Source: Raillietiella orientalis
Lineage: Eukaryota
NCBI GenBank assembly: GCA_036172245.1
Contig: JAYWIR010000008.1
Coordinates: 2,108,001 to 2,172,000, forward strand
DNA: 64,000 nucleotides
Direction: 5' to 3'
Below the pieces are notes generated by a model. The model did not search any database. It had not been told where the DNA came from and saw nothing but the letters and a program-made list of their open reading frames with translations. Both the position numbers and the translations under genes were made by a program. Shown here in pieces: positions 2,541-61,900 of the stretch (positions within the stretch are counted from its first letter, which is position 1; each line of letters starts with the position of its first letter).

Positions 2541-3554
2541 TTCGGGAAGATACACGGAATGAGCAGAAGTACGGCCACCTACGGCACCTCGCTGGAGTGG
2601 ACGGTTTAGCGAGAGGAGCTCCTTTGCGATGGACTATGAGAGGATGCCAGCCCTGGTGGAACTGACCAGTATAGAAAGGATGGGGAAGAAACTCAAGGAG
2701 AGGCCCTCTCGCCTGTGCCGCTACATGGACGCTCGGCCTTTTGCTTAGCGTCGAGGACGCGGGAACAAATGACCTCATTCTAGGAGCGACTCCCACTGCT
2801 TAGGAACGTGCAAGCGGCAGAGCACGGAGAAACGCTGTCTCCTACGCAAGCGTGACGTGGAGGGGGAAGAAGGGAGAACGGAATTTCCTCTTTGGAACTT
2901 CTCCGAAAGCGGAAGCGAGCGCCCCCCTCGACATGCAGGAACAAGAACCGCTCCTGCGTGCTCAGAGAACGTCTTGGAGATCCCCAAGGAAGAACTGGTA
3001 GTCCACACCTTGCGAGTCTGCGCAGTTCCGTGCTCCCCCTCTCGGCGCGCGCTCTTGCTGCACATCGGACTCGCCCCCTGAAACAGGCGCTCGTCCCCAC
3101 CGCCTGACGATCAGGGGCACTTCCTCGTGGCCGTGCCACGAGGTGGCGGGACGGTCCAACTCGTCTTAAGCTCCTTTGCTGGACCGCGATGCCACTCTTC
3201 GCTTGCATCGAAAAGCGCTTGGCAAGCCCTCCTCTCTCTCACCCCCGGACGACATTCCACCCCCCTCTCGGACACAGTGCTTCGTCCTCTCCTCATCCTA
3301 GATGTGGCCTCGCTCTACCGCGGCGGTCGCGATCTTGTCCTCAAGACGAGGAGTCTTGCGGCGCAACTGCAGCAGCAACGAAAATCGTCCTCTCGACCAT
3401 CCTCAAGGCACGGAGAGCGAGCAGGTGGTCCCGCTTGACCCCGGCAGCAAGTCAGGACATCGCCATGCAAGTACTGAGGGATGGAAAGAGCTGCAGTGAC
3501 TCTCCCCCACCCCATCATTCAGTCACGCCTGCTCATTCCCTGTATCTTCCCGAA
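2541..3554. repeat. 26-nt inverted repeat pair about 1 kb apart
   Basis: 2541-2566 TTCGGGAAGATACACGGAATGAGCAG versus the reverse complement of 3529-3554 TTCGGGAAGATACAGGGAATGAGCAG: 25/26 identical. Confidence 0.85.
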
Positions 3555-6500: not shown

Positions 6501-6697
6501 AAAACTACGGCAGTACTGGGTGGATGGAAAGCAGAAAATTCATTCCTTGTGATTTTCATACGTCCCAAAAGATTTCTGCGAAACAAATTCAAAATGTTTA
6601 TTATTAAAACTGCTGTTCTTGATTCACCGTACATAGCAACAGTGGCGAAAATCGGACCTCTGATGAGAATCCATCAGTCAGGATAGTGAACCACACT

Positions 6698-9600: not shown

Positions 9601-12600
9601 GACGCTTCCCAATTTTCTCTGAAGGGCGCTTCCCGAAGGGGACAGCGCGCTTTTTATACTCTAGATAGGATATCCCCTCAGGGAGGTATCAACCAGCTTT
9701 ATGGTACGGCTCCATTTTCTCAGCCCGAATGGGAACCGGATCCTTAATTCCTGGAAGGATGACGAAGGGTCAACCAGCCCCGGCCAGTCAACGGAAGCAT
9801 CCGGTTTCTGGCTTCCACCAGCGCCGCACTTGAAGCTTATAAGGCCACCCAGCGTCATCTTGAGTTGGGGGCTCGGAATCCACGACGCACCCTCCATTCT
9901 CGGCGTCGGTCCTTCCCCGGATGGGATCGGAACCCGCAACGCTGGGTGCTACGCGCGGAGACCGTAGCCACACGGCCCGCCAACGTGGGCCGTGTGGCTA
10001 CGGTCTCCGCGCAGGGCAACGGATTTCTTCCAAATCGTTTTTCAGCGGAAAAGGATTCGAGAGACCCCGATTCCATCGGCAGCAGCAGCAGTTGCATCCG
10101 GAGACTAAATCTGCAAATCCATCCTCCGTGTGTCCGCAACCGCCTCTTCTGATGCAGTCGCAAAAGATCCCTCCAGTTGCCCTTCAGTTCTGAAGAGCGG
10201 AAGGTTTCGAGGACTTGCCTCGCTCGAATCTCTTCCTATGCTTATCGGAACTCCACCAACTTTCGGCGCTACCGCGGTCGCGGAGCACCTCGAGGATTTT
10301 ACGCTTCCTTCGTCTCGAACAGTTTGAGTTCGGATTGATGTTCTCGGCGGCTGCGTTGGCTGATGGGGCTCCAGAAGCTGCTCTCTTGGGTACTTGGAGC
10401 AGGAGGTCGACAACGGAACGGATAAACGACACTTTCGTATCTCTGCCTGTTCAAAAGAGTTGAGATGGGCAGCCGTCGGCTCTTTCGTGTCCATTTCATC
10501 TTTACCGGTTCCGTCTCAAAGCACCGTGGGCAAGTGCCCGTACCGAGAAAGTATGCGGGTTGGCCAAGTACACGAGATGCGGCAAAGATGTAACTGGAAA
10601 TTTTTCGTGATGCTTATTCAGCTCATCCGCGTTTCGCCCGCACGCAAGGATGTCACTGCGTGCGTTGCGTTTGAACTGTTGTCACTGACTGCTTCCGTTA
10701 GCTGCACGCGGTCTAATCGATGGCTCCATTGCATCGAAGCCGGAATGTTGGGCTGCCGCCTCGCCGTGCACCCACTTCCGGCGAGAATTGTGAAAGAAGT
10801 AAATGGAGGTTTTCCCTCTCTTCGATTCACCGGCATCTGCGGAGCATCTGGGGTTCATTCGTCGAAATTGTACGCTCTCCCATGGGCGACCAATCTTTTT
10901 TCAGATTCTAAAACTTCCTTTTGCCTTGCCGCGAACGGGTTGCTTCCTTCTTTCAAAACAATTCCGGGACTGTGGCTTTTCCCTTTTTTGTGTGCATCTC
11001 TCTCTCTTAGAATTGGCTTGCATCAATCCATCATGGTTCGGATTTTCACATGGAGACTGTGGCGCGCGCTGCCTGTTCGCAGAGCAGATCGTTGAGGCAG
11101 CAGCAAGGCGCTACATGAGAACAGCATAAAGTGGCAAATGAGCAATAAACCGTGGTCGGATGCCTCGAAATCTCGTACGCTGAACCGATCCATCAGTCCA
11201 TATGGCAACGGGAGGGAGTGATTATCCACGCGCATGACGTGCCCAGCCTTCCAGTTTTCCTGAAGAGTTTACTCGTGAGATCAGAGCCTTCGCGGATGCT
11301 ATCAGAGGCAAAGACTTCGCTCCAAGCCAGTGTCTCTCGAACTAAAGATCCTTTTGGGTATCGAGCAGGGGTGAGTTCCAGAGTGTCGAAGAGGAGATCG
11401 CGACGATAGGATGATCAAGATGTCACGGGGTATGTACTGTCTGAATGTTCACTGATACATCAGCAGGACTGATGAACTCCTCCAGTGAAGGTTGTTTTCG
11501 AAGATGTTGAATGCTGCGAAAGGTGCACCGCCAACCACACTCCTGACGGTGCTTCTGGACTCGCAAACAGCACGAAAAGGACCATGACTTTGGGTAAGGC
11601 AGCTTACGCGACCGGACTTCCGCATTTCGATCTCTCGTGAGCTCCAGGAAATTGAGTTCTGGCTGCCACGACGGCGGTGGCGATACCAAGTCAGATTTGC
11701 TCCCTGGCAGCGCTTTGTAGGTCGCTGCCTTCTGCTTCCTCGCTCGTAAACGAGACAAACAAAAACAAGGGTTCGTGGGGAACTTGCCATCAACAAGGTG
11801 GACCAGTGCTTCTTCTGCCCAGTAATCCTCGTGCATACTCCCGACTTGTGTGGTGTTACTATGGCTGCACCACACAAGTCAGGAGATTGCACAAAAGATT
11901 CATTAGCTGGAAAGCTCGATGGTAATTCTTCGCCGTAGCCGTTAATATGAACATCAGCTCCCACAGATGAGATCTCGAAAAGATCAGATCAAAACTTTTC
12001 ACATTTCCTATGAATTCCCAGGCAAAACGGATTCATCACTTCAGTAAATATCTTGGAAACGTTACATAGCTTCTCAGAAAAGCGAATAGCGAAGAATAAT
12101 GATGTAGCTGTGGATGTTTTTGTTTCCTATTCATGGGATGAATATTAGTCTGCAGGATGATGGAGAATCCTTATTCTTGGAGACAGAAGGAACTTTAATG
12201 AGGGAGATCCGGAATATGGGCATCGTTATGAATATGAGACATCAGAAATAATTCAAGAGGCAATGTGAATTGCAGACATGGTGAAGATCGCTCCGATGTC
12301 GTAATGCCAGCTGGGACCATTTCGACGTTTTCTCAAAGGAAGGCAGAAGTCATCTCCAACTATTGACGATAGTGACGATTTTTAATCAGAGCAAAACAAA
12401 AAAAAAAATCTGCAACGAAAAAAAGTTCCTTTGAAATGTTCTTTGGTAGCAGCCAGTGGACATATAAAAACGAAAGTGCTGACGAAGTCGGAATCCCATC
12501 TCCCCTCACAAAAAAAAAAAACGAAAAGTGGAGGGATGGAACTGCATTCTCTTCGCCCTCCTCCTCAACTTCACGGCTTCACATTCACAGATCATCGGCG

Positions 12601-42772: not shown

Positions 42773-45700
42773 ATGGGTCACTATAGACCTATATATATAG
42801 TGTTCAATTTTTTCTGCACATTTTGAGAAACAATGCAAGCACTTCATACGCAGAATACTCAGAAAATCAGTTTGCGGGTTGCCTACCTGAGCACACGTTG
42901 AAAAAGACAACACTGTGCCTCCGGAAGAGCTGCGTACTCGTCATGAAAATGACGAGATGACCGAAATGGATGGCATGCAGGCTTTCCAAGGCTTCGTGCC
43001 TTTGGCAAGCGTTTGCCTGTCTTTATGCAGCAAGTGTTGCAAAATCGAATCCAGAGCGTGTCATTCTTCAGGTCCCTCCCTGCAAATGAAAAGAGCGTCG
43101 TTCTGATATGATGTTAATTTCCTTTCTCACATTTTCTTTTGTTTTCACTTCCTCTTCCGTCTTCGTCATGATTAGACTGCTCGAATGAGGCAATCAACGC
43201 TTTAATGCTTCCAGGCTGCCTGCCAACGATAATTGACTTGAAGCTTCGGAACCCAGAAAGTTTCAGGAATGAAATGAAGGCACAGAGCTCTTCAACTCAT
43301 CATCAGGAGATGTAAGAAGACTTTTGGGGTGGCAACGCAAAAGATTCAGGCAGGTGCCCCCCTTGCAAGATGGCGAGCATGCCTCATCCAGAAAACCGAC
43401 TGGATGGAGCGAGCCCCCTATCACTACTTCCGGATGGGATGACGTGCCTTCTCCAAATAGAAGAAAAAAGGATAAGACACCAGTCTTTCTTACCGTCCAG
43501 TGGACGACAGATAGGAAGCGGCCCCGCGCAGTGTTCTTGAAGAACAGAGGCTACTTAATGATGTAGTGATACCGAGGCTCTGCCTAATCGAGAGAGGGGC
43601 AGACAGACACTCTGGGAACGGTTTTCTCTAACAAGAAGAGTTGGCAGACCCATGTGGGATACAGCCTTCGATGGTCGACCGGCAGACGAGGGAGGTCCCA
43701 AGAGGGGCACACAGATATACCTTGGTTCACTTGCTCGCTTCGTGAATGGTCTCAGCCTCCGTTCCGGAGGAAGCATCGAGACGAGCTCCGCTGCGGTCCC
43801 GCATCCAAGTGGGCTTGCTCGCACGGCTCACCCCAGAAGAGATCGTTCCTACGCGTGGGAGGGTGACTTTGGTCACGCTGGCATGCGGGCCGGACTTGAC
43901 TTCGTGAGAAGACGAGAAAATGGTGAGACGATGCTTCGAGCACTTTGAACTGCGGGTCTTGGCAAGTGGGTAGACCTGGTGATAAACTTCAAGGACCAGC
44001 GGACACCGAAGCACTGGGTGGGAATCCACAACCTCCGGTTCCGAAGGATCGTTTCCCAAGGAGAAAAGGGGAGAGTCAGAATGGGTAGCTCCCCAACCGA
44101 CTCACCTCCCTGCCCATCTCGACACCGAGGAATGATCCTGATGCAGGAAGTCATATTCTATTTCCCGAGGTTTCCTCGCTTTCGTGGAACGGGATAAGGG
44201 AAGTTACCCGGGACGCGAAACCTTCCGGAATGAAACTCGGGTAGCAGCCCGTCTCCCGGGACACGGAAGGACCTTGACCCTTTCCTGGAAATCTGTCTCC
44301 TCCGATTCCCTGGCGCAACCTGTGGTGCTCGTCTCGCGCCCTGTGCTTCCCCAGGGGAAGGGGGAGGACGATTAGATCCTCGGCAGCGGGGGACCCCTCT
44401 TTGAACTGGCTCTGGCAGGCAGCGTGTCGAAGGAACGCCGCAGGCGAAATGGACAGCGAAAGGCGTGCTGAAGGAGACGGCAAAAAGCTCAGAACGTCTC
44501 AGAAGCGCGCGGAAGAGGTAGAGGACCACCTGGAGAACCGTGCCTAAAGGCCTCATAGCTCGTGGAGTTCCCGGATATTGCCTTCCGGCTCCTTGCAACA
44601 GCGGGCGTCTCCCAAGTGTCAGAAGAACCTCTACTTCCAGTTGAGTCCGTCGGCGACCGGTCAGGGAAGGAAGAACGGCCTCTTCCCTCATACCTTCCTC
44701 AAGAACCGAAAAGTTGGGTCGAGAAGGCAGCTCCGCTGCAGCACCAGTAGCGGAACTGCCATAGGAAAGCCGCGTTAGAACACAGAAGAGAACACCACAA
44801 TAACGCCGCCGCTGCTGCTGCTGCGGCAGTGACGCTTGGCAAACGTTTTCAATGGAGCAGCTCCACCGCTACTCCCGTGATGATTGCTGGAGCGAAATCG
44901 CAGGGGATGCTGCGGCTTGGCAGACCGCTGTCTCAAGAGTTGAACGAGCACCTGAAGTTTTCCGGTGGCCTTAGAGGGTTTCGAAAAGAAACTAGGAGGA
45001 GGCGAGTTGCCTCCATTCACCCCAGCAAATCAAAAAAGGGGACTGGACCGCAAACTTTCCCTGTTGAAGAGGTAGGTCGTGACCTTCCTCTTCCCTCCTC
45101 CGACAGCATCATCAGGACGTGCGCGTGCTGCCCTCGGATGGTTGAAAGTGGCTGCCTCTCCGGACGCCGGGGGACGCGAACGTGCTCCGTCGCCAGGGAA
45201 ACGGGCTGGAGCTCGCCAGCTGCCAAGGAAGTGCGCCATCGGCCGTGCCGGACCGCACCCCCACCTACGGAGCGCTTGCTGACGACCGCAACTCCCAATG
45301 GATGTGAGGCGTCCCTTATCCACTGCGCAGCAGAGAAGCAGGTGCCCGTCTCCGCATGCGCATGCTGGATCCGAAAAGCGCCTCTCTCCTCCAGACAGGC
45401 GGAAGGGCTTGGGTGAACGCTTCGTGGCCCGCGGGCAAACAGGCTCGTCCAAGTGCGGTGGAGACAGGAGGCGGGGGACAGATCCGAGTTTCCAGCCAGC
45501 AGGGGCCTTTCCAGGTCGCGGATTTTACAAGGAAAGAGGTCGCCTCCATTTTTCCCTCCTTCCGTCCCGTCCTGGGAGACGTCTTCGCGCCAGGAGAGTC
45601 TTCCACTGCGAAGAAACGTGTTGGCAGAAGCAATGCCGCCCGTGCACACCCTGCAGGTCAGCAGCCTCATCTCTGGAAAAGGTACCAACAGGGAAACTCT

Positions 45701-48700
45701 GCTTCCGTGGTTTCCCCCCCCCCCCCGATCCATCCCCTCGCGCCTTCCTCAAATCGCGGTTTCTCCGAAGAAACCAGATGCTCCGGTCGTACAGCCGCGC
45801 TTCGCGTGCTCCCGGAAGCATCTGCTCTCTCGTTTCCGCCTGCTTTCGAACCCAACGTGAAGCGGTTCAGCCGTGACTTAGCCCCTCGGCGAATTTCTAT
45901 CTTTCCGTTCTCGGCGTTGCATCCCCTACACACACACGCACGCACACACACAAAAGGTTGGGGAGGGGGGAAATTCCCGGTTCGGATTGCACATCACGGT
46001 TTGCTGTCCCTGCGTCCGACCGCGCCGTCTGCAGCCATTGCTTACGTCATCCAGCAAGCCTTCCCTGCGCCGGCAGAGTCGAGCAGCGTATTGATTTCCT
46101 GCAACACAACTCACGGTGTTGTCAGCCAAGAATGGGGTAACGCGAAAGTGCACTCCAACCACACGAATGCGTGAGTACAGATGTTGGTGCGCGTGATGTG
46201 TTCGCGTCTACATACACAAGCAAACGCACGCACAAATACGTATTCGTTCGCATGTATACAAGCGTAAGCGTGCACGTTCAGCATGCAAGTTGCTTGTACA
46301 TAGGATGCAATGATCGTCTATCTCGAAGAAAGTACCGCGGAAATCTTGAGCTGGCGGATGCCTTTCTTTTGTTTCGTTAGAGAGAACCTTTGCTTCCCAC
46401 CGACAGGAGCGGGAACAGCAAACTGGGGTCCAACACCGCCGTGTTCCTTTTTTCCTCAACTTCGATCGGAGAAGTCTCTCGGATCTTTCCTCGTAACATT
46501 CCATGAGATTAACGAGTTACTTCCAAAGAACACAAGAACTGAAATACCAAGTGACCCCTATAGATCCTTAACTCATGAAGTTGGCGATTTCGAATGCACG
46601 CATACATCTTTTTTCTCAAAAAAAACACACACGGAAACGAAAAGGAATCGGGCACTCCCAGATCGGGCACGAGCTCCAAGACGAATTTTGGAAGTTCCAA
46701 ATTGTAAAGCTGACTGGTGAATTCACTCTTGAAGAACGAGAGGGGTTTCCGTTGCTAAGAAGCGTGCAGCTCTGAAAAGCGAGCAGAAAGATCTGGACCT
46801 CGCCAACAAGAGGGCATGCCATTGTTGCGACATTCCGTTACAATGTAATACATCCCTTGCCGCACAGATGAAAGCTGGCTGCACCCCTCCCTCTCCAGAG
46901 CTAGATGCAACCCCAGCCATCACGAAGTTTCCCAACCTTATTGACGCAAAAAGCAAATCCTACACGTGGAAGAATCGGCGGAAGTCGCGGCAAAACTGAC
47001 TTTTGCCCCGTGGATCAGGGATTGCCACAAACTGGTCACACGCTGATTGCCAGTGGAAAATCATGTCGAACGCTGCCTATTCACAGCTTCACCGTGATGG
47101 CATCATGCAGAAAGGGTGGTTGAACTCGGCTGCTAAATCATTCGTCCAAGGATTTCTTGCATATATTTCTGTATCGATATTCACGAAAAAGTTACATTGC
47201 ATACGTTCGTCAGCTGTGTGTGAAAAAAGCTCTTTCCAAGTCCTCACCGTGGCAAGTATGATGTGGAATTCAGTACCATGATTATGTATATATCAGAGTA
47301 TCAGTGTATCAAAAGGATAAGACAGAGTAAATGAACTCCAATGAGGCATGATTGACACGTAGGTTGAACCCTAAGTGGGTTGTTTATTGCTGCGCAGAAC
47401 CTACTCCCATTTTGCAACGCAAAAAAGCCCTTAACGCGTGTCGAAGCTCACAGTTCTTCTGATCCTATAAGGTTGTGGAACTGAACACCTTATTACTTAA
47501 GCACAGACGAGACACCATAGGCCAAGTTTCACATCACTTTGCTCATCATAGGAGCACAAAAAAGGCACTTTTATTTTTTGTTCTTGCTTCCTTTTTTCGT
47601 TTAACAAATAATTCGAAGTCTCTGGAAAGAAAAAAGAGGAAATTACATGCGGAAGACGAGCTCTGAGGGCATCAACTCCAAGTAATGATCTCGTGCTGAG
47701 ACTGCTTTGCACTGCATCTGCTCTGCACGTGTTCTTCTAAAGCATTTTATATTATAAGGGAATTTTCACAGTCGTTTGAGCTGACGAAGCTCTCCTACAA
47801 GGCGCATGTATCTTGGAATTTTTTCTCTTTTTATTTAAAACTCTGATTTCCCTCGAAAGAATTCAATGAATAAAGACACTGATGATAGTTTATCATTTTC
47901 AATGTCATTACTGTTAATATTCTAATTACATGTGTCATTATTTTAAAAAAAAAAACATCCGCTATCTCGTGCTAAATAATTTTTTTTATAATTTTGCACT
48001 TGTTGTTGCATAGCTAATTGCACAGTCATTATCTTTTCGAAAGCTTTTAAACTCCTATATGCAGTTATAGTTCAACCCAATCGATTCGACCACGCGAGAT
48101 GTTGTGACTCTATCGTGGAAAGTTAGCACGAAGACCAGAGTTAGGATTAGCAATCACTACTCAATAAACATTTAAAACGGTGTAGTAAGGCATCCTATCC
48201 CAATACCTGCTGTTTGAATGCTGCTTATCCTTATCGCCAACAGTCGGTCACCAAAGGACTTAGGTTCAGTTAGTTTCAAGGTGATTTGCATAAGATTCCT
48301 TCAAACAGAGATGAACATATCAACTTTTAGTGAAGTAGACTAAAATTTCTGTCGAAAAAAACAGCCTTTGGGAAACATATAATCCGATATTTGTAGGATT
48401 GTGTTGGTATTGCGGCTGTAGAACCATACATGCCCTACCCGCACGTTTTGGTTAGCATGCAGATCAACTGGGTTACGTCACTTCTAAAGCATACCATTCA
48501 ATGTTGAAATGATCGCTTGAGTGTGAAAGCAGATTCCAACAACGCTTCAAAAGATGACAATTGTAGAGATGAGAAGAGGAAAACAAACACATTGAATGAG
48601 ACTTAGGTAAGCTGGAGAAATGGTAAATTTCATAGGAACCAAAAGAGCAGATTCTATGAACACAAATCTGTTGATACCATTTCTATTCCATCTTCTTAAG

Positions 48701-50019
48701 TTACAGGAAATTTCATTTAAGAACAGGATGCAAGGAATTGTTTTCTCGACTATTTTCCTTTGGTAGACGCGTGAATGAAAGATTTTCCCCGTCAATTTCG
48801 GAATGATCATTCCGTTTTCACAGGAGTCTGCTGTTCGAATAACACTAGCTTTGGACTACACGTATCCCAAAGACATTCTAAATCAGAAATTCCATTCAGA
48901 TTCACATTGATTAAATGTGTGGTCTGAAGAACATCTCGATTGAAAACATGCATTGAACATTTCTGAAGGGATAACTGGGCAAAAAAGAATATGGCTTTTC
49001 TAGCGATAAGTCATTTCATCATCAAGTCCATTTTACCTGATGCATTCATTTATTTCTTCCAATCCTAAAAAAGATATAAATTTACCCCTTCGTTTGTTCA
49101 GATTACATATTTTGTACTATATTGACATCGAATTTAAACTGACTAAAAGATTTGAAAATTTAACAAAACCTTTTTTACTGTATTTAAACGTTATCAAAAT
49201 CATTTATTTCATTAAGATTCTTCTTTGATTGCAATGTTACCAACAAAATTCATTTTTGATATTTGGATGAATATTCCATTGATGTAAGGAATTGTAATCG
49301 GCTATCAGTAAAATTGCATTTCAGGCGGATGATTTTACACTTTCAAAAAAGAAATATTCCTTTTGAAAACATTACGGTGCAAAAAACTACAAGAGATATT
49401 AACAATTATTCCAATATGCCTAATGACTAGTAAAGTCATTCATATTTAAAAAAATAAATTAAAAATGCTAAAAAACTAAGTTTTGTCTTCATAAGTACTG
49501 ATCACAAGCATCGATTTAATGAAAAAAGAGTTTCTTTATCAAAAAGTGTGTATTTCTTTGTTTCTGCATCCATTCTAATCTCTGATGACATTTTTGTTAT
49601 TGGGTAAAATGTGCCATTCGAAATTAATTTTGTACAAACGCAATTCTATTAGTCCTAACACCAAATTTCAAATCATACGAATTACTTTGCATTATCTGAC
49701 GATCGATATAATTAATAACCTCCCAAAGTGATTAGTTGGAGATAATTGCCGAAGCTAGCTTCGGGTTGATCCATGTTTTTTTGTTAGCACGTGATGGGTA
49801 ATCCTGAGGTTCGCAGTTATGGTGTCGCAAAAAGCTTAGTGTAATCCATCTTCAAAATAAATTTGGTTTCGATTTAATGTCATTTCGATATTACTGTTTT
49901 TACCTAATTTCAAAGAATTGTTAAGACGCTAGTTTGAAGTTTTGAGAGGTTTTACTCTGCATTTTTTAAAAATATTGTAAATTCATTTCAGATATTAGTG
50001 ACGCATCTAGCTACACAAC

Positions 50020-53000
50020 ATGGCGGCGATTCCTATGACACATGAAGGTAAATAAGAATTTTAATAGTTTCAAGGGACTTTGAATAAATTTGACGATATT
50101 AGTTGGTGTACGTGTGTGTTAGTGGTTGCTGATAGTTGTTTTTATCAACCTGCTGTTAGCTCCATTAGTTTTCCATGTGCATTTTGGGTAAAATGCACAT
50201 GGGTCGTTAATTTGTGTGAACATTGCGATGCTTATGCCATTTCGTAATCGCACTCAGCAACCCTATAATTTTTAAACATTCGGTGATAATTATTAATTTT
50301 TAAATCTGATTGTTGGTATGAATGCATAACGGAAACAAATTATTGATCGAATATTGATAAGTAGTGCTGATTCGGATTCATTGTGTTATGGTTTTCTAAA
50401 GTAATATTCCTTTGGTCAGATATTGAATTACAAATACGAGAGATTCAAGCAAAAAAGCAAAAAGTTGCACAGGATGCATCCTTTGATAAAGAAAGAATTG
50501 GTTTGGGAGAAACAGGCTACTATGATCAGGATATATACGATGGGGGAAAGAATAAATTTGATGAATATGTTACCTCTATTGCACCAAATGAGGAAATGGA
50601 GGTTTGTGTCAAACTGAAATCCGGGAGAAATTATTTTAATGAAAAACAGGATGAGGACGATGATGCAGTTGTCATCCAAAGTAGAAAAAGTGTCAGTGCT
50701 CCAGTAGCTCTTCTGAATGACATCCCACAAGTAATTGACAAACTACAAAAGAATAAAATAAATAATGTTTACTCTAGGCTGAAAAGGATTATGATCCTTT
50801 TGCTGAATATAAAAGACCCACTATTGCTGATAGGGAGGATGAATACAGGGCACGGCGTCGTCAAATGATAATTTCGCCTGAACGAAATGATCCTTTTGCT
50901 GATGGTAAATATCAATTCCATTAAAATCCATTTGTTTGACTGCTGTAAAAGCATAGCATTTATATCATGTCTTTACTGTGATGATGTTTGTAGATAAAGT
51001 GTGAGTAAACAATATTTTTTGATCTTTTCAGAAGTGAATGTTCAAACTTTTTATATATTATACCCGTTAAAAAAATTGTAAAATATAATATGTTAAATTT
51101 GAAGTTATAGTTAGCTAGTTTAAGCTGTAGCTTAAGAGAATATAAAATGTGAAAACAGTGATTTGTATTGTATTGACACAACAACCTTTGTAAAAATGCC
51201 TGCAACATTAGACTAAGCACATCCACAAAGCACATACTAATTTTTTCTTTCCTCCTCTAAGAGCAACTACATTTTGAAGGTGAATTCTGCATTTTTGGAG
51301 ATGTGCAAATCATTGGATTATTTCTGAGAGTAAAAATTTTATGCTTTGTTTTTGAAAAAAAGTTCCCTTCACTATATCTATACTTTTATTAGCAGTTATT
51401 AAATAAACATCCCACGAATAGCATCACATAAGATTAATAAAAAAGACCTTATTAGAAATGTAACTTTTAAAAGGCCTTCTTAGTGCATTAAGACACGATT
51501 TGCATTTGTAATTTAACCTTAAATGCATTAATAAGATTCCTGACGTTTTTATTAATGATCATATGAAAAAGTAAATTTCTTCACATTCTTGTAATGAGGT
51601 AAGAATAAAAAACGTCCTGCCAAGGTTATTTCCATGTGGATGTTGCTTAGTAAAGGATTGCAGATGTTATTAATAAATAGATTATTTCCAGATATATCCA
51701 TGAGAGACAATGGATTAAACCCCTGATGACGAACTCTTGCAGCATGTACGTATTGCATTTAAGCACAAGACATGAGTTTTAATTTTCTTTTTGCTTCTAT
51801 TTTTTTATGATTGTTTAAAGTGTTAGTTTTGAATTATGAATGAAGGAAGTTGGACTCATGTCTTGTATGGTAATTATGGAATTTTCTTTAAATTGCATTC
51901 TCTGTTCAAGAGGCACAAACTTCTGTTTGAAGTTTGTCGTTTGAACTGGAGCAATTGAGAACATTTACTACGGTTGTTGAAAATCCCGTTTTTTCTAGGT
52001 GGAAAGACTCCTGATGTGAATTCGCGTACCTACACAACAATCATGAAGGAGCAGATTCTACGAGGTGAAGAAGTTGAGGTAACATTTCAGTTGCACTGAA
52101 TAGGTTTTTTTGAATAGTCACATCATTTAGAGTAGCTTACCCTTTATAAAATTTTCTTTTAAGGTACGCAAAAAACTGGCAGAAAAAATGAAAGATGGAA
52201 CTCTGAAACCAATTCAAAATGGAGATATGAAGCAGCTCAATAAGAAGAGAGGAAGGTGGGATATTACAGCAGAGGAATCGATACCCAAAAGCAAAAAATC
52301 TTCATGGGATCTAGCTGAGGTATAATACTAGGTGAAAAATTTTGATGTAATATTTTTCGTGTAGACACCATCTCATTCACGTTGGGATGAAACTCCAGGT
52401 AGGGCAAAGGGATCTGAAACTCCTGGTGCCACTCCTGGAGCAAGTACGAGAATATGGGATCCAACTCCTGGCCATGCTACACCTGGACACATGACTCCAG
52501 GACATATGACTCCAAGCCATGAAAAATCCACACCATCTGCCAGAAGAAACCGCTGGGATGAAACACCAAAAACTGAAAGAGGTGATATTATTTAGCATAA
52601 TTTTTGTGTTTCATATTTCAAAGGTGCCCTTTTCACTTTAAAGTGCTGAATATGTATTTTTCAACTTTCTAAGTGTTGCATAATTTCTTCACTCCATTAT
52701 TTGTATGCATGGCATGCACATTTAAAATATTAGAATGAGAATTATTGTAGTATCGGCAATTCTTATGTTATCGGAAAGATATATATATATATATATATAT
52801 ACATTTTTTGCCATCATTTACAGAAACTCCTTCACACAGTGGCTGGGCAGAAACTCCAAGAACAGATCGTGGCATAAATGATATTCAAGAAACCCCCACT
52901 CCAGGAGCTTCAAAGCGTCGAAGTCGATGGGATGAAACACCAGCTCAGACTCCTCTTGGAGGTGTAACACCATCCACTCCTGTTACTCCGGTCACACCAA

Positions 53001-56000
53001 CTACTCCTGGAACACCAATGTTTACTCCCAGTGGGATTACTCCTACAGGACCCAAAGCAATGGGCATGGTCACTCCTACTCCTGGTCATATTCTTCATAT
53101 GACACCTGAGCAACTACAAGCTTATAGATGGGAGAGAGAAATCGATGAACGAAACAGACCTCTTTCCGATGAAGAATTAGATGCAATGTTTCCTCCTGGA
53201 TACAAGATACTTCAACCTCCTGCTGGGTACATCCCTATAAGGACACCAGCCCGTAAACTTACAGCAACTCCTACACCTATGGGTACACCACAGGGATTCT
53301 ATATTCAAACTGAAGACAGATCAGCAAAGTTTGTTGATACACAGCCTAAAGGAGGCAATTTGCCATTTTTAAAACCTGAAGATGCTCAATACTTTGACAA
53401 ACTACTGGTAAGCAGATTTGGTGTGTAAAATGTTATTTTTGTAGTTAGCTCTGAATTTATTATTTTGTTTTCATGCCTTTTGAAAATTGGGCTTCACTGA
53501 ACTATTGTGGTTTTTTTGTTCATAGATATTTTTGAAAGTAATGTTGATTTGTTTCAATTTAGTTAGATGTGGATGAAGATGCTCTAAGTCCTGAAGAACA
53601 AAAGGAGAGAAAAATCATGAAGTTACTTTTAAAAATCAAGAATGGAACTCCTCCAATGAGGAAATCAGCTCTTAGACAAATAACTGATAAAGCCAGAGAA
53701 TTTGGTGCCGGGCCACTTTTTAACCAGATTCTTCCTCTTTTGATGTCACCAACTTTAGAAGATCAGGAACGACATTTACTTGTCAAAGTTATTGATAGAA
53801 TTTTATATAAGCTAGATGACTTAGTCAGACCATATGTTCACAAAATTTTAGTTGTTATTGAACCCTTGTTAATTGATGAAGATTATTATGCTCGTGTGGA
53901 AGGCAGGGAAATCATTTCAAATTTAGCTAAGGCTGCTGGCTTGGCAACCATGATATCTACCATGAGGCCAGATATTGACAACATTGATGAGTATGACCTG
54001 TTTATTTATGTAGTTTTAGAATTTTGTGTAAAGGTTGAGAATTTTGTTTTTTATATTTGTTTGGACGCTGGTGTTGAGAAAGAAAAAGAAAGTAATTTTG
54101 GATATGCATTCCGATTTTTTCAACATTACTTTTATGTTATTTAAAATGAGTCAACAAGCAAAAGTCAATGTTTGTTATGTGGTATTCTACTGTTGTGTGC
54201 TGTATTTATCAGGTTAATAGAAGGATATTAAATTTTTAGATACGTGAGGAACACAACTGCAAGAGCATTTGCAGTTGTTGCATCTGCCTTAGGTATTCCT
54301 TCCTTACTGCCATTTTTAAAAGCTGTATGCAGAAGCAAGAAGTCATGGCAAGCCAGACACACTGGTATAAAGATTGTACAACAAATTGCTATTCTGATGG
54401 GATGTGCTATTTTGCCTCATCTGAGAAATTTAGTAGAGATTATAGAGCATGGTATGCCCTCATAGCATTTTACTTTTAAAGCTTATAGCAGGAATTTTTA
54501 GGTTTGATTGATGAACAGCAGAAAGTTCGAACCATTACTGCATTGGCTTTGGCAGCACTGGCTGAAGCTGCCACACCTTATGGTATTGAAAGCTTTGATT
54601 CTGTCTTGAAGCCATTATGGAAAGGCATCAGAACACATAGAGGAAAGGTTGTGCAAATTACTTATAATTAGAGACCTTTTGCTTGCAATTTGTAATTTAT
54701 AGGGTTTAGCTGCCTTCCTAAAAGCTATTGGATATCTCATCCCTCTCATGGATGCAGAATATGCAAACTATTATACAAGAGAAGTCATGCTTATTTTAAT
54801 ACGAGAATTTCAATCTCCTGATGAAGAAATGAAGAAGATTGTATTAAAAGTAGTCAAACAGTGTTGTGCCACAGATGGTGTTGAGCCGCAGTACATTAAG
54901 GATGAGATACTTCCACATTTCTTTAAACATTTCTGGAATCATCGTATGGCCTTGGACAGAAGGAATTATCGACAGGTACGTGCATTAATTTTTTGCATAA
55001 TCTTCTCCATACGGTTTGCAGTTTATCTCTTGTTAAGCAGCATTAATTTGTACTGTATTAGCTAATTTAGTTGCACTGTCTGTTGTAGCATCAATAAAAT
55101 ATCTTTTGCTTTGGCTATTTGATGTTCAGTCATCAGTTTTGAAGTAATTGACTAATTTATTAATTTATTGTCAAAGTATTTTTTTTTTTATACTTTCTGC
55201 TGCTTATTCATTGTATTCCATAATTTAGCTTGTAGATACCACTGTTGAGATAGCTAACAAAGTTGGAGCTTCGGAGATTATTAATCGCATTGTAGATGAT
55301 CTCAAAGATGAAAATGAACAATATCGCAAAATGGTTATGGAGACTATTGAAAAGATCATGGGCAATTTAGGTTCTGCTGATATTGATTCTCGCTTAGAAG
55401 AGCAGCTCATTGATGGAATTTTGTATGCTTTCCAGGAACAAACAACAGAGGTTGGTAGAAAGTTTCATTTTAGTTTTGACAGTATCCCTTCTAATTTTCA
55501 CAGGATGTAGTTATGTTGAATGGCTTTGGAACTATAGTCAATGCTCTTGGTGAAAGAGTAAAGCCCTATTTGCCACAAATTTGTGGTACAATTCTTTGGC
55601 GATTGAATAATAAATCGGCTAAAGTTCGTCAGCAAGCTGCTGATCTTATATCACGTATTGCTGTGGTGATGAAGACTTGTCAAGAAGAAAAACTTATGGG
55701 ACATTTAGGAGTGGTACTTTATGAGTATCTTGGAGAAGAATACCCAGAGGTCCTTGGTAGCATTCTTGGTGCTTTAAAAGCTATTGTGAATGTCATTGGA
55801 ATGAATAAAATGACTCCACCTATCAAAGACCTTCTTCCTCGTCTTACTCCAATTTTGAAAAACAGACACGAAAAAGTCCAGGAAAATTGCATCGATTTGG
55901 TTGGACGTATTGCTGACCGTGCTCCCGAATATGTTTCTGCGAGAGAGTGGATGCGTATTTGTTTTGAACTTCTGGAATTATTGAAGGCACATAAAAAAGC

Positions 56001-56745
56001 TATCAGACGGGCAGCAGTAAACACTTTTGGTTACATTGCCAAAGCTATTGGTCCCCATGATGTTTTGGCAACTCTTTTGAATAATCTGAAAGTGCAAGAG
56101 CGTCAAAATCGAGTATGCACTACAGTGGCTGTAGCCATAGTTGCAGAGACTTGTTCACCATTCACTGTATTGCCAGCATTGATGAATGAATATCGTGTCC
56201 CAGAATTGAATGTTCAGAATGGTGTCCTTAAATCCTTATCTTTTATGTTTGAATATATTGGTGAAATGGGCAAGGATTATATTTATGCTGTTACACCACT
56301 GTTAGAAGATGCACTTATGGACAGGTAAATTATATTAACAATAGTGAAGTTAATTATCTTGCTTTGTAGAGATCTAGTTCACAGACAAACAGCTTGTGCT
56401 GCCATAAGGCATATGGCATTGGGTGTGTATGGCTTTGGCTGTGAGGATGCATTAATCCATCTCCTTAATCATGTGTGGCCCAACATATTTGAGACATCTC
56501 CTCATTTGGTGCAAGCTTTCATGGATGCCATTGAGGGAATGAGGGTTTCCTTAGGTCCGATCAAATTGCTTCAGTATACGCTGCAAGGTTTATTCCATCC
56601 AGCAAGGAAAGTGCGAGATGTGTATTGGAAAGTCTATAACACCCTTTATATTGGTAGCCAAGATGCACTGGTAGCTGGCTATGCAAGAGTTCCCAGTGAT
56701 CCTAAAAATCAGTACATACGATTCGAACTTGATTATATTTTGTGA
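50020..56745 (+). CDS. SF3B1: Splicing factor 3B subunit 1
   Basis: Fifteen exons: 50020-50047, 50420-50601, 50650-50730, 50778-50904, 51999-52078, 52164-52319, 52365-52581, 52824-53407, 53563-53990, 54240-54451, 54502-54647, 54703-54975, 55229-55450, 55504-56324, 56370-56745. N-terminus THEDIE.QIREIQ, RWDETP ULM repeats, TP-rich region, [16 protein letters not shown] and highly conserved HEAT repeats ending RFELDYIL. Confidence 0.99.
51692..51745 (+). other. Candidate poison (PTC) cassette exon in SF3B1 intron 4
   Basis: Acceptor ATTATTTCCAG| at 51691 and donor CAT|GTACGT at 51746. Spliced to exon 4 (phase 1) it reads [17 protein letters not shown]. Confidence 0.6.
52778..52801. repeat. (AT)n microsatellite near the 3' end of SF3B1 intron 7
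   Basis: About eleven AT units just upstream of the exon 8 acceptor. Confidence 0.85.
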
Positions 56746-56896
56746 GCATGGTAATCAAAATTTAAACTCTGTGGTATTTAATCATGCCAAAAGCGAGATA
56801 GTCTTACCAAAGTGTGATGTATCCATTTGAATGTATGGATTATGCAATATTTTGTCATGTTTATACCCCATCATTACAGAGATTTGGAAACACTCC

Positions 56897-57004
56897 AATA
56901 AAAAAGTGTCACTGTGTTTATGTTTCAAAAAATTGTAAGAAATTGTAATGTTTCAGCCACTCAATAATATTTAATGGTTATTTAGCACCACAGACTACAA
57001 TAAA
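56897..57004 (+). terminator. Two candidate polyadenylation signals of SF3B1
   Basis: AATAAA at 56897-56902 and 56999-57004, each followed by GT/T-rich sequence. Confidence 0.55.
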
Positions 57005-58918
57005 ATGCTCATTGGAGTAAATTTTTCAGTTTTGTTGTGTTCTTAATTATATTAAGAAATATAAAATCAAGGTTAGCAAATTTTTAGAATGCTGCGTCCA
57101 AACTATCATTATTGTTGCAAGTAAATGGCTAGGAAAATATTGTCACAAATGTAAAAAGTGCAAGCTTGATGCACCTATTGGTGTTTTCTGCCCCAAGTTT
57201 CAAATTACGTTGGTAGTCTTCCGAATGCTTTGTACGTTATTTCAGATTTTCAAGATTTTTGTCGGTAAGCGGCGCCCATCAAAATGCTCAGTGTGCGGAA
57301 TTTTGTACAACAACATTTTTGATTCAAGCAGCGTGTGATCATACTTCGAGTGTATGAGACAAAAAAGAAAAGTGGGTCTATCCAAAACAAGGGTTCGTTT
57401 CACCATTTCATTTAGCATGGTGTCGTTAATTTTGATAGCGGTTCTATGCAAGGGTGGAGTGCACAGATTGGGATGGCTCCTTGTAGCATTGGTTAAAGGT
57501 TCTACATTTCACGAGAGGTGCTAAACGGAAATCGAGTAAATGACTAGTGGGACCGAGTGGTCATTAATAGTATCAGGAAAAGTTTTTCCGTAGAACGAAC
57601 GCGGAATTTATTCCATTCTGGTTACTTCAGTGGCAAACTTACCTATGCAAGCTTTGCCCATGTCTTCGACGGGCAATAATTAAAGAGCCACTTTTGAAGA
57701 GGTACAAAACGTAGCGAAAATATGCATCTGTAATAGCGCTCCTGCTGTGGCATCAATAAATATGATGAAAAAAAAACCAGTTGATTTTGCATATTCATGA
57801 AGTTTATTTGCAAGGAATCTCTCCTTTTTTTGTAGCATAAGGATACTTGCATACATATTCATTAAAGCAGTCATCCTGATCGACACTCAGATAATGACAA
57901 TGGGATAATGCTTATACGTGTAGGGCATGGTAATAACCATTGTATAAAGTCGGTACCTTGAATTTGGTTAGGTTCCTTTAGACCAATTGGGTTTCACACC
58001 AAATCTCACTTAGTGTGGTCATCGTTTCAAGTTAGGGACTTAAATGCCAAGGAGAGATATTTTGTTTTAATAAACAGATCTTCCAGAGCCAGTCAATCAA
58101 TCAAGAAAAATCGGATCGAAGGAATCTGAACTTTCGGGTGAAATGAGATCTCTTTTGCATCTCTTAAAAATAACTTGATATCCTCTATAGTTATTCAAAG
58201 AAAACACATTCATTCGTGTTCTATTTACCTCCTTCAAATTAATACGATGAGATCAATCAACTTTTTAGAAACAATCTCGCATGGTGATAGAACTGATGAA
58301 ATCTATGCCAAAGCTAAAGATTAACGCTAGACTTGCTTTTATGTCGGAATTACAATTCATTCAATAATGGTACTTTCTTCACTTACAATAGTCAAGCAAA
58401 AAATACAACCTTGTAAACCAGATCTGTTAATGAGGTCTTTTTTCCAGGCTTTTAGTAAGTGTTTATGTAAACTGGGAGTAAATTGTAAAGGTGCGCGCTA
58501 AAGAGTTTGGTCCTTTGCAGTTGAATGTAGCAGGAGCAGATAAAAATTAAGAATTCTAGTTTTCTGAAAGAAAAATCATCACAAAGGGATGGATTATTGA
58601 TTCAGTTCGAAAATGTGCTTTGTAGTGTATCTATTGTGTACCAATACGGTTTATCTTGTGTAAAAAAATAAATTGCTGAACATTTTTCCGTTAATTGTCC
58701 TTTGCTGCATTTGGTACTTGGACTTCTGTTTTCTCCCCGTGTTGTGCCTTATTCGTGTTGTGCTGTTTGCGTTTCCCGTGACTCGTTGAGCCAAGTTGCC
58801 TTGTAATCAAAGGTACGAAACACCACAGACTCAGCAATCTCAAGTCCTTACCATTGCATTAGCACTTATTGTTAAGCAAAACATACAAGTTCCTAGTATC
58901 AACCAGATATTTTTAGAT

Positions 58919-61900
58919 ATGTTAAATCATTGTACGTTATATAAGTTTACAACACTGTCATGTAATTCCTCCATATTCAAAAATATTGTGAAAAAAGCAA
59001 GTATCCCAACATTGTTTGTTAATAAAGCTACTATAGTTAGTTCATATAGGAAACATCCTGACATTGACAAAAATAAACCTCCTCCTTGGCCCTATAAAGA
59101 AAAACCGTTTGGTTTGTTCCATTGGTGTTTTACTAGAGAGTCTTATAGATCAAGATTCGATGAGAATTCAAAGGTTGTTATAGTAGAAGGAAATGTTGCC
59201 GCCGGTAAAACCAAGTTTGCAAAAGAGTTTGCTGAAGAAACTGGTATGCTCTATTTACCCGAAGTCAACATGGATATGTTTTACATCAATAAATATGGAT
59301 ATGATATGAGAGATTATGATTATGATCTTCCAGAATCAATACAGTGCTTTGATTTGGATGATTTTTTCAAGAATCCTCATCATGTTAATGCAAGTGGATT
59401 TCAAATAACTATGTTATATTTGAGATTTAATCAGTACATTGATGCACTGAATCATCTTTTGAATACAGGTAATAGAATTTTATCTGAATGTTTATTTAGT
59501 CTTGAATGTTTTCTTTGTGTAAGAGTAAATAGATTATGAATATTATGTCATTTGTTTCTAATTCTTTATAGGGTAGTGTTTTAAAGATAACCCGTTAAAA
59601 GACGAAATTCTTCCGTTTCCATATCTACAAGTGAAAGTTTTTATTGTTTATACCACCAATTAATCGAAGATGTGTACTTCAATTTGTATATTTTAATACA
59701 GTATGACGCTATTTGAAAGTACACTCACAAATTGAATTTCCACTTGCAAAGCAAACGAAAAAGTGCAAACTTTGGAAATGAAAATATATAATTTGTAAAT
59801 TATTTTATTTCATTACAATTTATTACATCCAAGTTAAGTTTTTGTAGATTTACTATTATGTATGTTCATCTTCTGGAGAATCTTGTTTTAGTGGTATTCT
59901 GTTAAATTCCATTCAAACTGATAATCATTTTGTATGTTGATTTCATTTTAAATTCAATCCATCTAACATAACATCTTATTAGAAACAAATTGGAACTATT
60001 TGGAGATTGTTTCAGGATTTAAAATTAAGTTTCTTAGCTGTCAACCATTTTTTATTTCTTGGGACTGAATAATCGGTGTAACTTTACCAAACCTAACTTT
60101 TGACCTTATGTGCTGATTTCCATGGGTTGCAGTGGGTAATCTTCATGATTTGTTGAAATCAGCTCACCAGTACTCTACTTCCAATTTCATATTCACATGC
60201 TAATCATAATTCCTTAAAAAACAATGCGATTCTTTCAACATTTTTTAGATAAAGTAGAATTGTTTAAACGTACACAAGTGTAAGATTCAAGTAGTATGTA
60301 GTGTTTTTCTGTTCATTAGCTAATGAAATTGCATTTTTCTGTTCAAATAGCATTTTTGGTTTTCACATTTGATTTAAGCATGTCAAACATTTTGGAGTCA
60401 CTTTGCACAAATAAGGAAGAAAAATACTAACATAGAGGTCTGACAAAATAACTGCTCTTACCTGCTGAGATTATTGAAACCACATACCTCTGTAGTATTA
60501 CCTGTTCATGCTATCATTCATTGCTCCAACCCTAGCATTACTATCACATGCAAACACATTCTATTTTTACTTGATTTCTGTATTTTCCGTCCAATTTTGT
60601 CATTAATCATCTATAGTGTATTGTAGTTAGTATTTAGTGCACATATGAAAAGAGTGTTCTCTTGGAAAGATTTATGTGAAAGGTTAGCTTTTCTTTTATT
60701 TTTCTCCTTAATCTAACCATCTAAGTAATTTATTTTCTATGCTCTATTGATGTGCAAGTTATTATTATATGTTCTGAAATCATGCTCTTGTTTGATGAGC
60801 ATTAGATGAGATTTTTAACTAGGGATGGGTCAGTTTTCTAGAAGAAATTTTGTTTAAAAGATTCCATCAATTAATGCAGAAAGTAAGTTCTGTGAATGTG
60901 CAATCATGTTCATGATTCATTGCCGAGCATTAAATGCATAGTATGATGTACTGATATACACATCAAGTAAATGGCGTGAATTTCATTTTTTAAATAATGC
61001 TTGCCATGCAAGCTCTGTTGGTGTGTTTGCTAATTTTTTTTTTTGTTTCTAACCTTCCTATATTAGAGAATAATGTAAAAGCTTTTCTGATTTCTCAAAT
61101 TCAATTTTAGGGCAAGGAGTAGTTTTAGAAAGAAGTTTTTTTTCCGAGTGTGTGTTTATTGAAGCAATGTTTAATTCAGGCTTTGTGAATAGAAAAGGTA
61201 AGCCTCATTGTGAAATTAAATTATATATTAGTTAGTAAGACATTACAAAGACAAAACATTAGTGTACTTTTTGTTTGTTTGGTTTCAGAATAACATAGTT
61301 GAGCTATTAGTCTGAGTGTTCAGTTTATTCGGATTATTTTGTCATTTGCATTTAATGGTTTTCAGTGAAGGATTTTTATTACAAGGTAAGAAGGAATGGT
61401 CTTGCTGCCTTACTTCGCCCACATATAATTATTTATTTGGATGTACCTGTTCCTATCCTTCTTGAGAGGATAAAGAAACGTAATTTATCTGTAGACAAAG
61501 AATCCAAAGTTCTCACTAGTGATTACCTAACTACAATTGAGAACCACTACAAACAACAGTATTTGAAAGAATGCAGGTAAAATGCATTACTGTTCTGTTC
61601 ATTTGCAAATTTTTATATCTGAAGATGTTTAAGAAATGTCAAAAACATTGTCTTGATTGTTTTGATCAGTTTTCATTCTGAATGCTACCACACTTTGTAT
61701 GAGGAATATTTTATGCCTTAAGAAGAAGAAAAAAAAAAGTGGACATCTTTCTGCACAGTTCTTGAAATTACAGTGTAGCTACAACTTCATTTTAAATTAA
61801 TTTGCAGCCAGAGTGCCTTTTATTTTTATTTTTTATTCTTTTTTTTTAAAAAAAGACTCTGATTAAATAGAAAATTAATTTTTATTGAGTGAAAGAAAAA

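Follow-up and report, generated by a model that had tools for sequence, protein, structure and literature searches.

Introduction

SF3B1 is a core protein of the U2 small nuclear ribonucleoprotein (snRNP), the splicing factor most often mutated in human blood cancers and a target of splicing-modulator drugs. To our knowledge, how cells set the level of this protein is poorly understood. One described control lies within the human gene itself, where intron 4 carries six cryptic exons of 29-56 nucleotides (nt) that promote its retention, all but one of them introducing a premature termination codon (PTC), and where the intron and these exons together control the amount of productive SF3B1 mRNA (Parra et al. 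2018, RNA 24:1255, PMC6097662). Such control has been described in vertebrates only; the passages of that paper concerned with it deal with developmental regulation and a decoy function and do not claim autoregulation by SF3B1. Here we examine the SF3B1 gene of Raillietiella orientalis, which lies on the forward strand of a 64,000-nt stretch of contig JAYWIR010000008.1 (positions 2,108,001 to 2,172,000; the whole stretch is hereafter the window, and positions are counted from its first letter). Intron 4 of this gene contains a 54-nt segment (51692-51745) that an original prediction, made from the letters of the window, had singled out as a poison exon and a possible ancient autoregulatory switch. 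We lean towards the view that this segment is a genuine and old alternative mini-exon of the non-productive (poison or decoy) kind, lying in the intron that corresponds in arthropods to intron 4 of human SF3B1; its conserved core is most likely an imperfect 5′ splice site, CAY/GTAnGTAT (here and below, a slash marks a splice junction).

Alternative splicing coupled to nonsense-mediated decay (NMD) is a familiar device of splicing-factor genes, and cases such as the poison exons of SR proteins are known to respond to the protein that the gene encodes. The SF3B1 segment resembles SR-type exons in being a candidate PTC-bearing cassette in a splicing-factor gene that is conserved more than its intron, but for SF3B1 any such response is conjecture. 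A second related case is the poison exon of SF3B3, where a conserved stem-loop common to human and Drosophila hides branch sites (Li et al. 2024, NAR 52:6002, PMC11162794). Both cases involve the gene of an SF3b subunit, a non-productive cassette (a candidate one in SF3B1) conserved between distant animals, and a stable intronic hairpin adjacent to it. The genes are nevertheless different, and the hairpin that is described upstream of the exon in SF3B3 lies 19 nt downstream of the donor in SF3B1. A third related class is formed by ultraconserved pseudo-5′ splice sites, U1-dependent silencers that raise the retention of their host introns (Nat Commun 2026, PMC13100119). As in that class, a 5′ splice-site-like motif (7-11 nt) is kept in homologous introns across animals at the locus studied here; the sites of that class differ in being reported never to be spliced and in being situated downstream of an essential coding exon. 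SF3B1 appears in the main text of that article in the references only and was not found in the three of its supplementary files that were searched. PMC6547761 makes no mention of SF3B1, and in the literature searched we found no description of an element in intron 4 of an invertebrate SF3B1 gene.

The original prediction had described human intron 4 as retained in a regulated way and as bearing PTC-containing cryptic or decoy exons. The window segment shares several features with the human cryptic exons E4a-E4f of Parra et al. (PMC6097662). It is found in the same gene and at the same intron position, after ..DPFAD and within a split Gly codon; the PTC exons are short in both cases (29-56 nt in human, 54 nt here) and the intron is longer than 1 kb; and conservation clearly exceeds that of the rest of the intron in both. 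At 1094 nt, the window intron exceeds the length of 1 kb that the decoy model calls for. However, the human exons are reported to be conserved within vertebrates only, as far as zebrafish for E4d and E4e, and their conserved part is a block of 125-200 nt rather than the donor motif of 8-11 nt found here. Moreover, inclusion, U2AF binding and an effect on retention have been demonstrated for the human exons (PMC6097662), whereas the arthropod candidate is known here from sequence alone. The tails of vertebrate short isoforms, described below, fit the exon 4/5 cassettes reported in the same paper; no vertebrate cassette was found within the 1.3 kb of the fish locus included in our comparison (L018).

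If the mini-exon reading is true, the presence of a conserved counterpart at this intron in invertebrates, among them insects, water fleas and mites, would make the brake on SF3B1 production ancestral to the gene and not a vertebrate addition. It would also point to a minimal conserved core, an imperfect U1 site of 8-11 nt, and would make the mechanism testable in small genes (an intron of ~550 nt in Daphnia or of 1.1 kb in the window) instead of the multi-kilobase human intron.

SF3B1 intron 4 in the window and in other animals

The SF3B1 gene occupies 50020-56742 of the window, with 15 exons, chained on the model of the full-length homologue P0006, that encode a product of 1310 amino acids (aa). 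Over these 1310 aa, SF3B1 proteins from many insect orders show 84-86% identity to the product, and those of springtails, Daphnia and chelicerates 80-83%. Such identities would place the source among the arthropods, probably the hexapods, at a distance from everything in the collections searched. Pfam assigns to it the SF3b1 domain (PF08920, E 5.3e-50) as well as HEAT families. The SF3b1 domain, the C-terminal HEAT repeats and the high full-length identity establish the gene as an SF3B1 orthologue. Taken singly, exon 8 has a closest match of 80% identity in the collections searched, and a protein search with exon 2 (60 aa) gave no match at E <= 1e-8, a cut-off that is over-strict for that length.

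The 14 introns of the gene measure, in order, 372, 48, 47, 1094, 85, 45, 242, 155, 249, 50, 55, 253, 53 and 45 nt. Intron 4 (50905-51998, phase 1) is the longest of them, about three times the length of the next longest among the other 13, and has a G+C content (GC) of 0.29. Both a second reading and a script returned the boundaries, length and rank that the original prediction had given for this intron. Its description of the remaining introns as minimal fared less well: the seven introns of 45-55 nt that it mentioned are all recovered, but six others measure 85-372 nt, so the other introns are not all minimal. Intron 4 splits ..DPFAD-G/GKTPD. Exon 4 (50778-50904) ends with ..DPFAD and the G that is the first base of the split Gly codon, and exon 5 (51999-52078) contains the first downstream Met, which is the start of many annotated arthropod 'isoform X2' proteins. 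An origin of the long intron in a repeat or transposon was considered and dropped, there being no second copy anywhere in the 64-kb window.

For comparison, metagenome contigs were scanned with exon 4, which yielded 39 loci that we labelled from their best matches among named proteins. These include four water-flea loci (L001, L002, L003 and L007, at 93, 91, 78 and 82% to a Daphnia protein), ant-like loci (L004-L006), termite-like loci (L008 and its kin), a springtail-like locus (L027), a mayfly-like locus (L017, with L016), two chelicerate- or mite-like loci (L031 and L032), the fish locus, and two loci from animals of uncertain affiliation (L010 and L015). An intron with the exact position and phase of the window intron (G/GT..AG/GN before GKTPD) is present in 11 of the loci, which come from water-flea-, ant-, springtail-, mite- and mayfly-like genomes and from L015. 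In the termite-like loci and in L010 an intron begins after exon 4 on the sense strand, and the available DNA of these loci ends before exon 5. L019-L022, L026 and L028 lack an intron here. We further note three copies of SF3B1 exon 4 in termite-like DNA that are probably pseudogene copies, one with in-frame stops (L024:2048-2173) and two with substitutions and a truncated match (L029:662-757 and L030:2921-3016).

In the springtail-, mite-, water-flea- and mayfly-like genes, no SF3B1 intron is longer than intron 4. It measures about 1130 nt in the springtail-like locus, where the other SF3B1 introns are 44-116 nt, 545 and 565 nt in the Daphnia-like L001 and L002 (other introns 37-67 nt), 1190 nt in the mayfly-like L017 (other introns 408 and 64 nt), and 570 and 539 nt in the mite-like L031 and L032. 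The ant-like gene does not follow this pattern, with an intron 4 of 167 nt in L004 and several longer introns elsewhere. Downstream of intron 4, the mite-like L032 has no intron and L031 a single one of ~64 nt, and upstream each has a gap of 200-250 nt. These two genes have kept an intron 4 of 540-570 nt (L031:5122-5694 and L032:4567-5108) although nearly all their other introns have been lost. Introns near the 5′ end of genes are generally longer and less readily lost than others, which may account partly for this pattern.

The relation to the vertebrate intron can be traced through protein isoforms. Vertebrate short isoforms (NCBI X3/X4) have ..SPER.DPFAD in common, after which their sequences diverge from a first codon that is split; GFYSAA (followed by a stop) and AVLLCQSC.. 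are the recurrent tails. Because this divergence falls after ..DPFAD at the same split codon as in the window, orthology of intron 4 with vertebrates holds, indirectly, and the window intron can be regarded as the positional and phase counterpart of human SF3B1 intron 4. The comparison of isoforms thereby bears out the intron position assumed in the original prediction.

A 5′ splice-site motif shared across lineages

The donor of the 54-nt segment (51743-51754, CAT/GTACGTATT, with GT at 51746) has close relatives in intron 4 of other animals. When 5′ splice-site-like motifs were compared across introns 4, the window's CAT/GTACGTAT was seen to recur as CAC/GTACGTATT in the mayfly-like L017, as AAA/GTACGTATT in L015, as CAC/GTACGTATC in three termite-like loci and as ACA/GTACGTATA in L010. 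Variants stand at the equivalent place in the four water-flea loci (GTATGTATT, GTAGGTATT and GTAGGTATC) and in the two mite-like loci (GTAAGTATTGC and GTAAGTAC); the variants of water fleas and mites are summarized as GTAKGTAT and GTAAGTAT. The distance from the motif to the 3′ end of the intron is 176-379 nt in all nine complete introns.

To place this recurrence on a quantitative footing, each distinct k-mer of window intron 4 was counted in intron 4 of ten other lineage groups (sense strand, 17.9 kb) and set against a first-order Markov expectation. At K = 8, GTACGTAT at 51746 ranks first of 1024, occurring in four of the ten groups where 0.1 were expected (p 1.5e-6, ~1.5e-3 after Bonferroni correction). 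The groups are the termite-like loci, L017, L015 and L010; for the termite-like loci and L010, 'within intron 4' means the sense strand downstream of exon 4, exon 5 being outside the available DNA. The next-best 8-mer is T-rich with p ~8e-4, and the k-mer that starts at 51746 also takes first place for K = 6, 7 and 9. Eighteen control scans, which paired the window intron with antisense targets, used the antisense window intron, or replaced it with eight other 1.1-kb regions of the window on both strands, gave a best p of 2e-4. On both strands of the 189 kb of loci, GTACGTAT has 11 matches, six of which fall on the sense strand downstream of exon 4, and it has two matches on both strands of the 64-kb window. 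A degenerate motif defined post hoc, GTANGTAT, is found in six of the ten groups against 1.0 expected (p 6.5e-5).

One explanation that this recurrence tells against is that a pseudo-exon has arisen by chance in an AT-rich intron, the sharing of the 8-mer being a coincidence. As described in the next section, the site scores of the segment are ordinary, its in-frame stops are expected, 83% of shuffles contain an equally good pair of sites, and the window intron has no alignable conservation. Because the sharing of the 8-mer is more than 100-fold more extreme than the best of the 18 control scans, is strand-specific and is confined to intron 4, chance is now an unlikely account, and we give it little weight.

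The motif is complementary to what we take to be the 5′ end of U1 small nuclear RNA at positions -3, -2, +1 to +3 and +5 to +8. A G is never found at position -1, and an A at position +4 in the mite-like loci only; the window donor is mismatched at both -1 and +4. These mismatches fit a site that binds U1 and is suboptimal. The donor at 51746 is very probably a conserved functional U1 site, judging from its recurrence across lineages, and the signal of the cassette that exceeds chance is, by these comparisons, the conservation of its donor.

A cassette-like module and hairpins in water fleas

The four water-flea introns 4 can be aligned with one another (L001:418-962, L002:609-1173, L003:557-1142 and L007:426-1039). 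The 10-mers common to three diverged water-flea species are found only within AGGTGAGTAA and TATTAACCTAGA, and any common 10-mer was seen in none of 500 shuffles. The conserved blocks begin with a perfect 5′ splice-site-like motif, which is followed ~65 nt on by a branch-point-like TATTAAC, then by TATAG/GT, and 64-88 nt later by the donor AC/GTA[TG]GTAT. Across all four loci AGGTGAGTAA, TATTAACCTAGA, TATAGGT and ACGTAKGTAT are invariant in this order of blocks. Water-flea intron 4, as its conservation indicates, holds a complete conserved cassette-like module.

A hairpin follows the donor both in the window and in the water fleas. That of the window (51765-51866) starts 19 nt after the donor and consists of a stem of ~26 bp, which includes a perfect inverted repeat of 13 nt, and a loop of ~48 nt; its fold has a z-score of -3.35, and none of 200 shuffles is as stable. 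The water-flea hairpins stand just after the donor at L001:787-880, L002:987-1080, L003:945-1040 and L007:827-900. Among the three related sequences L001, L002 and L003, the 3′ arm is common and the 5′ arm has changed without loss of pairing, with one double change from U-A to C-G, while L007 has a different hairpin in the same relative place. RNAalifold, applied to a MAFFT alignment, failed to return the water-flea structure, and no significant hairpin after the donor was found in lineages other than the window and the water fleas.

The 54-nt segment and its putative acceptor

Re-reading confirmed the anatomy of the segment as first described, a stretch of 54 nt that reads ttatttccag/ATAT...GCAT/gtacgtat and whose inclusion would bring TGA TGA into frame, with the stops at 51724-51726 and 51727-51729. 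The stop precedes ten downstream exon junctions, as in a poison exon. The segment sits on the GC peak of intron 4, a 54-nt stretch at 51698-51751 with a GC of 0.46 against the mean of 0.29. Its putative acceptor, ttatttccAG (51682-51691), has a branch-point-like TTATTAAT (51667-51674) 17-24 nt upstream of the AG, an AT-only motif of low information. The same 8-mer, TTATTAAT, stands upstream of the acceptor in a termite locus, and the water fleas have an invariant CTATTAAC. The best match to the window acceptor, taken as a 22-mer, is at the predicted acceptor of the mayfly-like L017, tied with one other site, and nothing comparable is found elsewhere. Inspection by eye places a branch-point-like motif and a YAG at 37-88 nt before the donor in every lineage, and all of the exons of 37-88 nt so predicted in the other lineages are frame-shifting or stop-bearing. 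The predicted counterparts of the segment stand at L001:722-786 in the Daphnia-like, L008:7957-8038 in the termite-like and L017:2421-2469 in the mayfly-like locus.

By splice-site strength alone, the cassette is not beyond chance. A position weight matrix (PWM) was built from the 13 other introns of the gene and is weak, with real acceptors scoring from -5 to +7; it places the cassette acceptor third of the 60 AGs of intron 4 and the donor ninth of its 60 GTs. An equally good pair of sites is present in 83% of 300 dinucleotide shuffles, or in 33% if both sites must score as high. Intron 4 contains 17 qualifying pairs against a shuffle mean of 2.9, although such pairs have sites in common and are not independent. 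The stops of the cassette are likewise expected by chance, because all 15 of the top-scoring pseudo-exons of the intron contain an in-frame stop and the intron is 71% A+T.

The highest-scoring donor of the intron by PWM (11.46) is a strong internal 5′ splice-site-like GAG/GTAAGAATA (51596-51606, GT at 51599), which precedes the cassette donor by 147 nt. Its water-flea counterpart is an invariant GAG/GTGAGTAA situated 161-180 nt upstream of their donor, a similarity of placement only, which could be chance. In no intron 4 was an internal 5′ splice site stronger than in shuffles, with 22-297 of 300 shuffles equal or better.

Several observations weigh against the reading of the segment as an old mini-exon. 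In terms of scores, 17 of the 654 AG..GT pairs of 20-250 nt in intron 4 match the summed score of the cassette, and it is outscored by several, among them pseudo-exons that end at GAG/GTAAGAAT (GT at 51599) and one at 51032-51103. When acceptors were scored uniformly, 20-86% of random GTs had an equally good acceptor in nine of ten loci; the rule selected 51705 in the window and not 51692. The conserved part of the cassette, as far as these comparisons reach, is the donor only, and the acceptor is not demonstrably so. The antiquity put forward in the original prediction gains genuine support from the donor 8-mer, the one most over-shared across lineages. The donor motif itself is absent from the springtail-like intron (about 1130 nt) and the ant-like intron (167 nt), as well as from the partial introns of the fish L018 (1.3 kb), L025 and L016. 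It had also been noticed before the formal scan, and the scan over all k-mers was run because of this; K = 8 was picked post hoc, though all k-mers were covered. To these points can be added the definition, given above, of intron 4 in the termite-like loci and L010.

In pairwise blastn of all intron 4 sequences, the window intron had no match at E < 0.01, and an nhmmer profile of the water-flea core found in it a T-rich stretch alone (E 0.17). Across relatives, then, the window intron has no alignable similarity, but the donor 8-mer is common to other lineages. The remaining groups do not add conserved islands: the termite-like introns are 83-100% alike and too similar to reveal any, and alignment of the mite-like pair gave two short common motifs only, which by a rough estimate are not beyond chance.

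Database protein forms provide a separate view of the exon 4/5 junction. Among 120 long homologues, 15 have the Met of exon 5 (M[KR]E[QH]) as their first residue, mostly as NCBI 'isoform X2' and ~150 residues short; they include P0007, P0014, P0019, P0029, P0040, P0051, P0061, P0071, P0080, P0084, P0089 and P0116. For two more of the 120, P0001 and P0085, the start falls within the 3′ end of intron 4. Many forms of 141-200 aa end just past exon 4. These forms give a hint that the exon 4/5 junction may often be non-productive in arthropods too. The short forms also belong with the points against the mini-exon, in that most of their arthropod tails begin with G and a residue expected from read-through into the intron; because many of the entries are contig gene calls, such tails represent read-through or retention at best and not inclusion of a cassette. 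Searching the protein tails back against the loci gave mostly noise, with read-through tails confirmed in L001, L007, L014 and L018. The tails of braconid wasps (VT[VI][CN]TFGI..) were considered as evidence for a cassette and dropped, read-through of the intron fitting them equally well.

Interpretation and alternatives

The closest rival to the mini-exon is a conserved intronic pseudo-5′ splice site, at which U1 would bind and which would never, or almost never, be joined to exon 5. Such a site would slow or block the removal of intron 4, or guard the intron from premature cleavage, and the AG at 51692 would be incidental; it would thus likewise act as a brake on intron 4 removal. Conservation of the donor alone, with acceptors indistinguishable from background, speaks for this rival, and the conserved mismatches at -1 and +4 fit binding of U1 with poor splicing. 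The arthropod database forms also resemble read-through of intron 4 rather than use of a cassette, and the class is already described, its members being U1-dependent silencers that raise retention (PMC13100119). However, the water fleas conserve a block with a branch point and 3′ splice site (TATTAACCTAGA, TATAG/GT) 64-88 nt upstream of the donor, which points to a whole exon. The termite-like locus, the only one to stand out in the uniform scoring, has an unusually strong acceptor, with 3% of random GTs as good. In addition, SF3B1 is not among the genes named in the body of that article or in the supplementary files searched (PMC13100119). On balance, we hold the pseudo-5′ splice site to be possible but doubtful.

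We prefer the mini-exon because the water fleas conserve the full module, all of the predicted exons are non-productive, and human SF3B1 uses cryptic exons in the same intron. In the working that we propose, U1 snRNP would bind the donor, and U2AF and U2 the upstream branch point and AG, so that the segment would be defined as an exon inside the long intron 4. If it were included, translation would run through 11 additional residues to TGA TGA, at a point over 5 kb and ten exon junctions short of the normal stop, and the transcript would be subject to NMD or would yield only a stub of 150 residues. If instead the mini-exon engaged the flanking exons without completed splicing, intron 4 would be held in the transcript, the decoy outcome of the human gene. 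Inclusion and decoy function alike would lower the production of full-length SF3B1. The sequence features, the common intron position, the unusual intron length in several compact genomes and the conservation of the donor are observed; use of the acceptor at 51692, inclusion of the segment, the ensuing NMD or retention, and any feedback by SF3B1 or by U1/U2 activity are inferred, and autoregulation of SF3B1 through the cassette, as first proposed, is conjecture.

A wider version of the mini-exon reading would make the segment homologous to a vertebrate decoy exon. The weakened U1 site (CAY/GTAnGTAT), with a hairpin in some lineages, would then form one module that predates the split between arthropods and vertebrates and acts as a sensor coupling SF3B1 output to U1/U2 snRNP activity. 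We offer this version tentatively and think it unlikely.

Rather less probable still is a recursive-splicing exon, in which intron 4 would be removed in two steps through an AG/GT and the donor would serve only to define that site, the mini-exon appearing in mRNA only when the second step fails. The predicted acceptors read YAG/GTG in the water-flea-, termite- and mayfly-like loci and in L010, as this model would have it. The window has an AG/GT site as well (51623-51630), which ranks fourth among acceptors and third among donors by PWM; it would start a 121-nt exon at 51625 with the same conserved donor, and may be an alternative acceptor of the recursive-splice type. However, the acceptor of the original prediction at 51692 reads AG/AT, with no GT directly after it, and for that reason cannot regenerate a donor. 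Enrichment of AGGT in the 130 nt before the donor is, by a rough estimate, no more than marginal. Furthermore, introns known to use recursive splicing are far longer than the introns of 0.5-1.3 kb considered here.

The least probable alternative is an alternative first exon in the 5′ untranslated region, transcribed from a promoter inside intron 4 and leading to the N-terminally truncated 'isoform X2' from the exon-5 Met, which would make the long intron a promoter region and not a brake; it needs no acceptor and suits the homologues that start at that Met or in the 3′ end of intron 4, but annotation pipelines would call the same proteins from cassette-containing or intron-retaining transcripts, and the branch point and 3′ splice site conserved upstream of the donor in water fleas speak against it, so that we consider it very improbable.

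Other features of the window

Rfam returned no matches over 49500-57500 at E up to 1. Within SF3B1, intron 7 contains a (TA)n microsatellite at 52775-52800. Just 3′ of the gene, at 58790-59536 on the forward strand, an open frame matches the deoxynucleoside-kinase family (PF01712) with an E of 4e-6, which is borderline at the cut-off. Two GC-rich islands, at 1-12000 and 43000-47000, reach a GC of 0.65 in a window that is otherwise 30-44% GC, and both contain long overlapping open frames on both strands.

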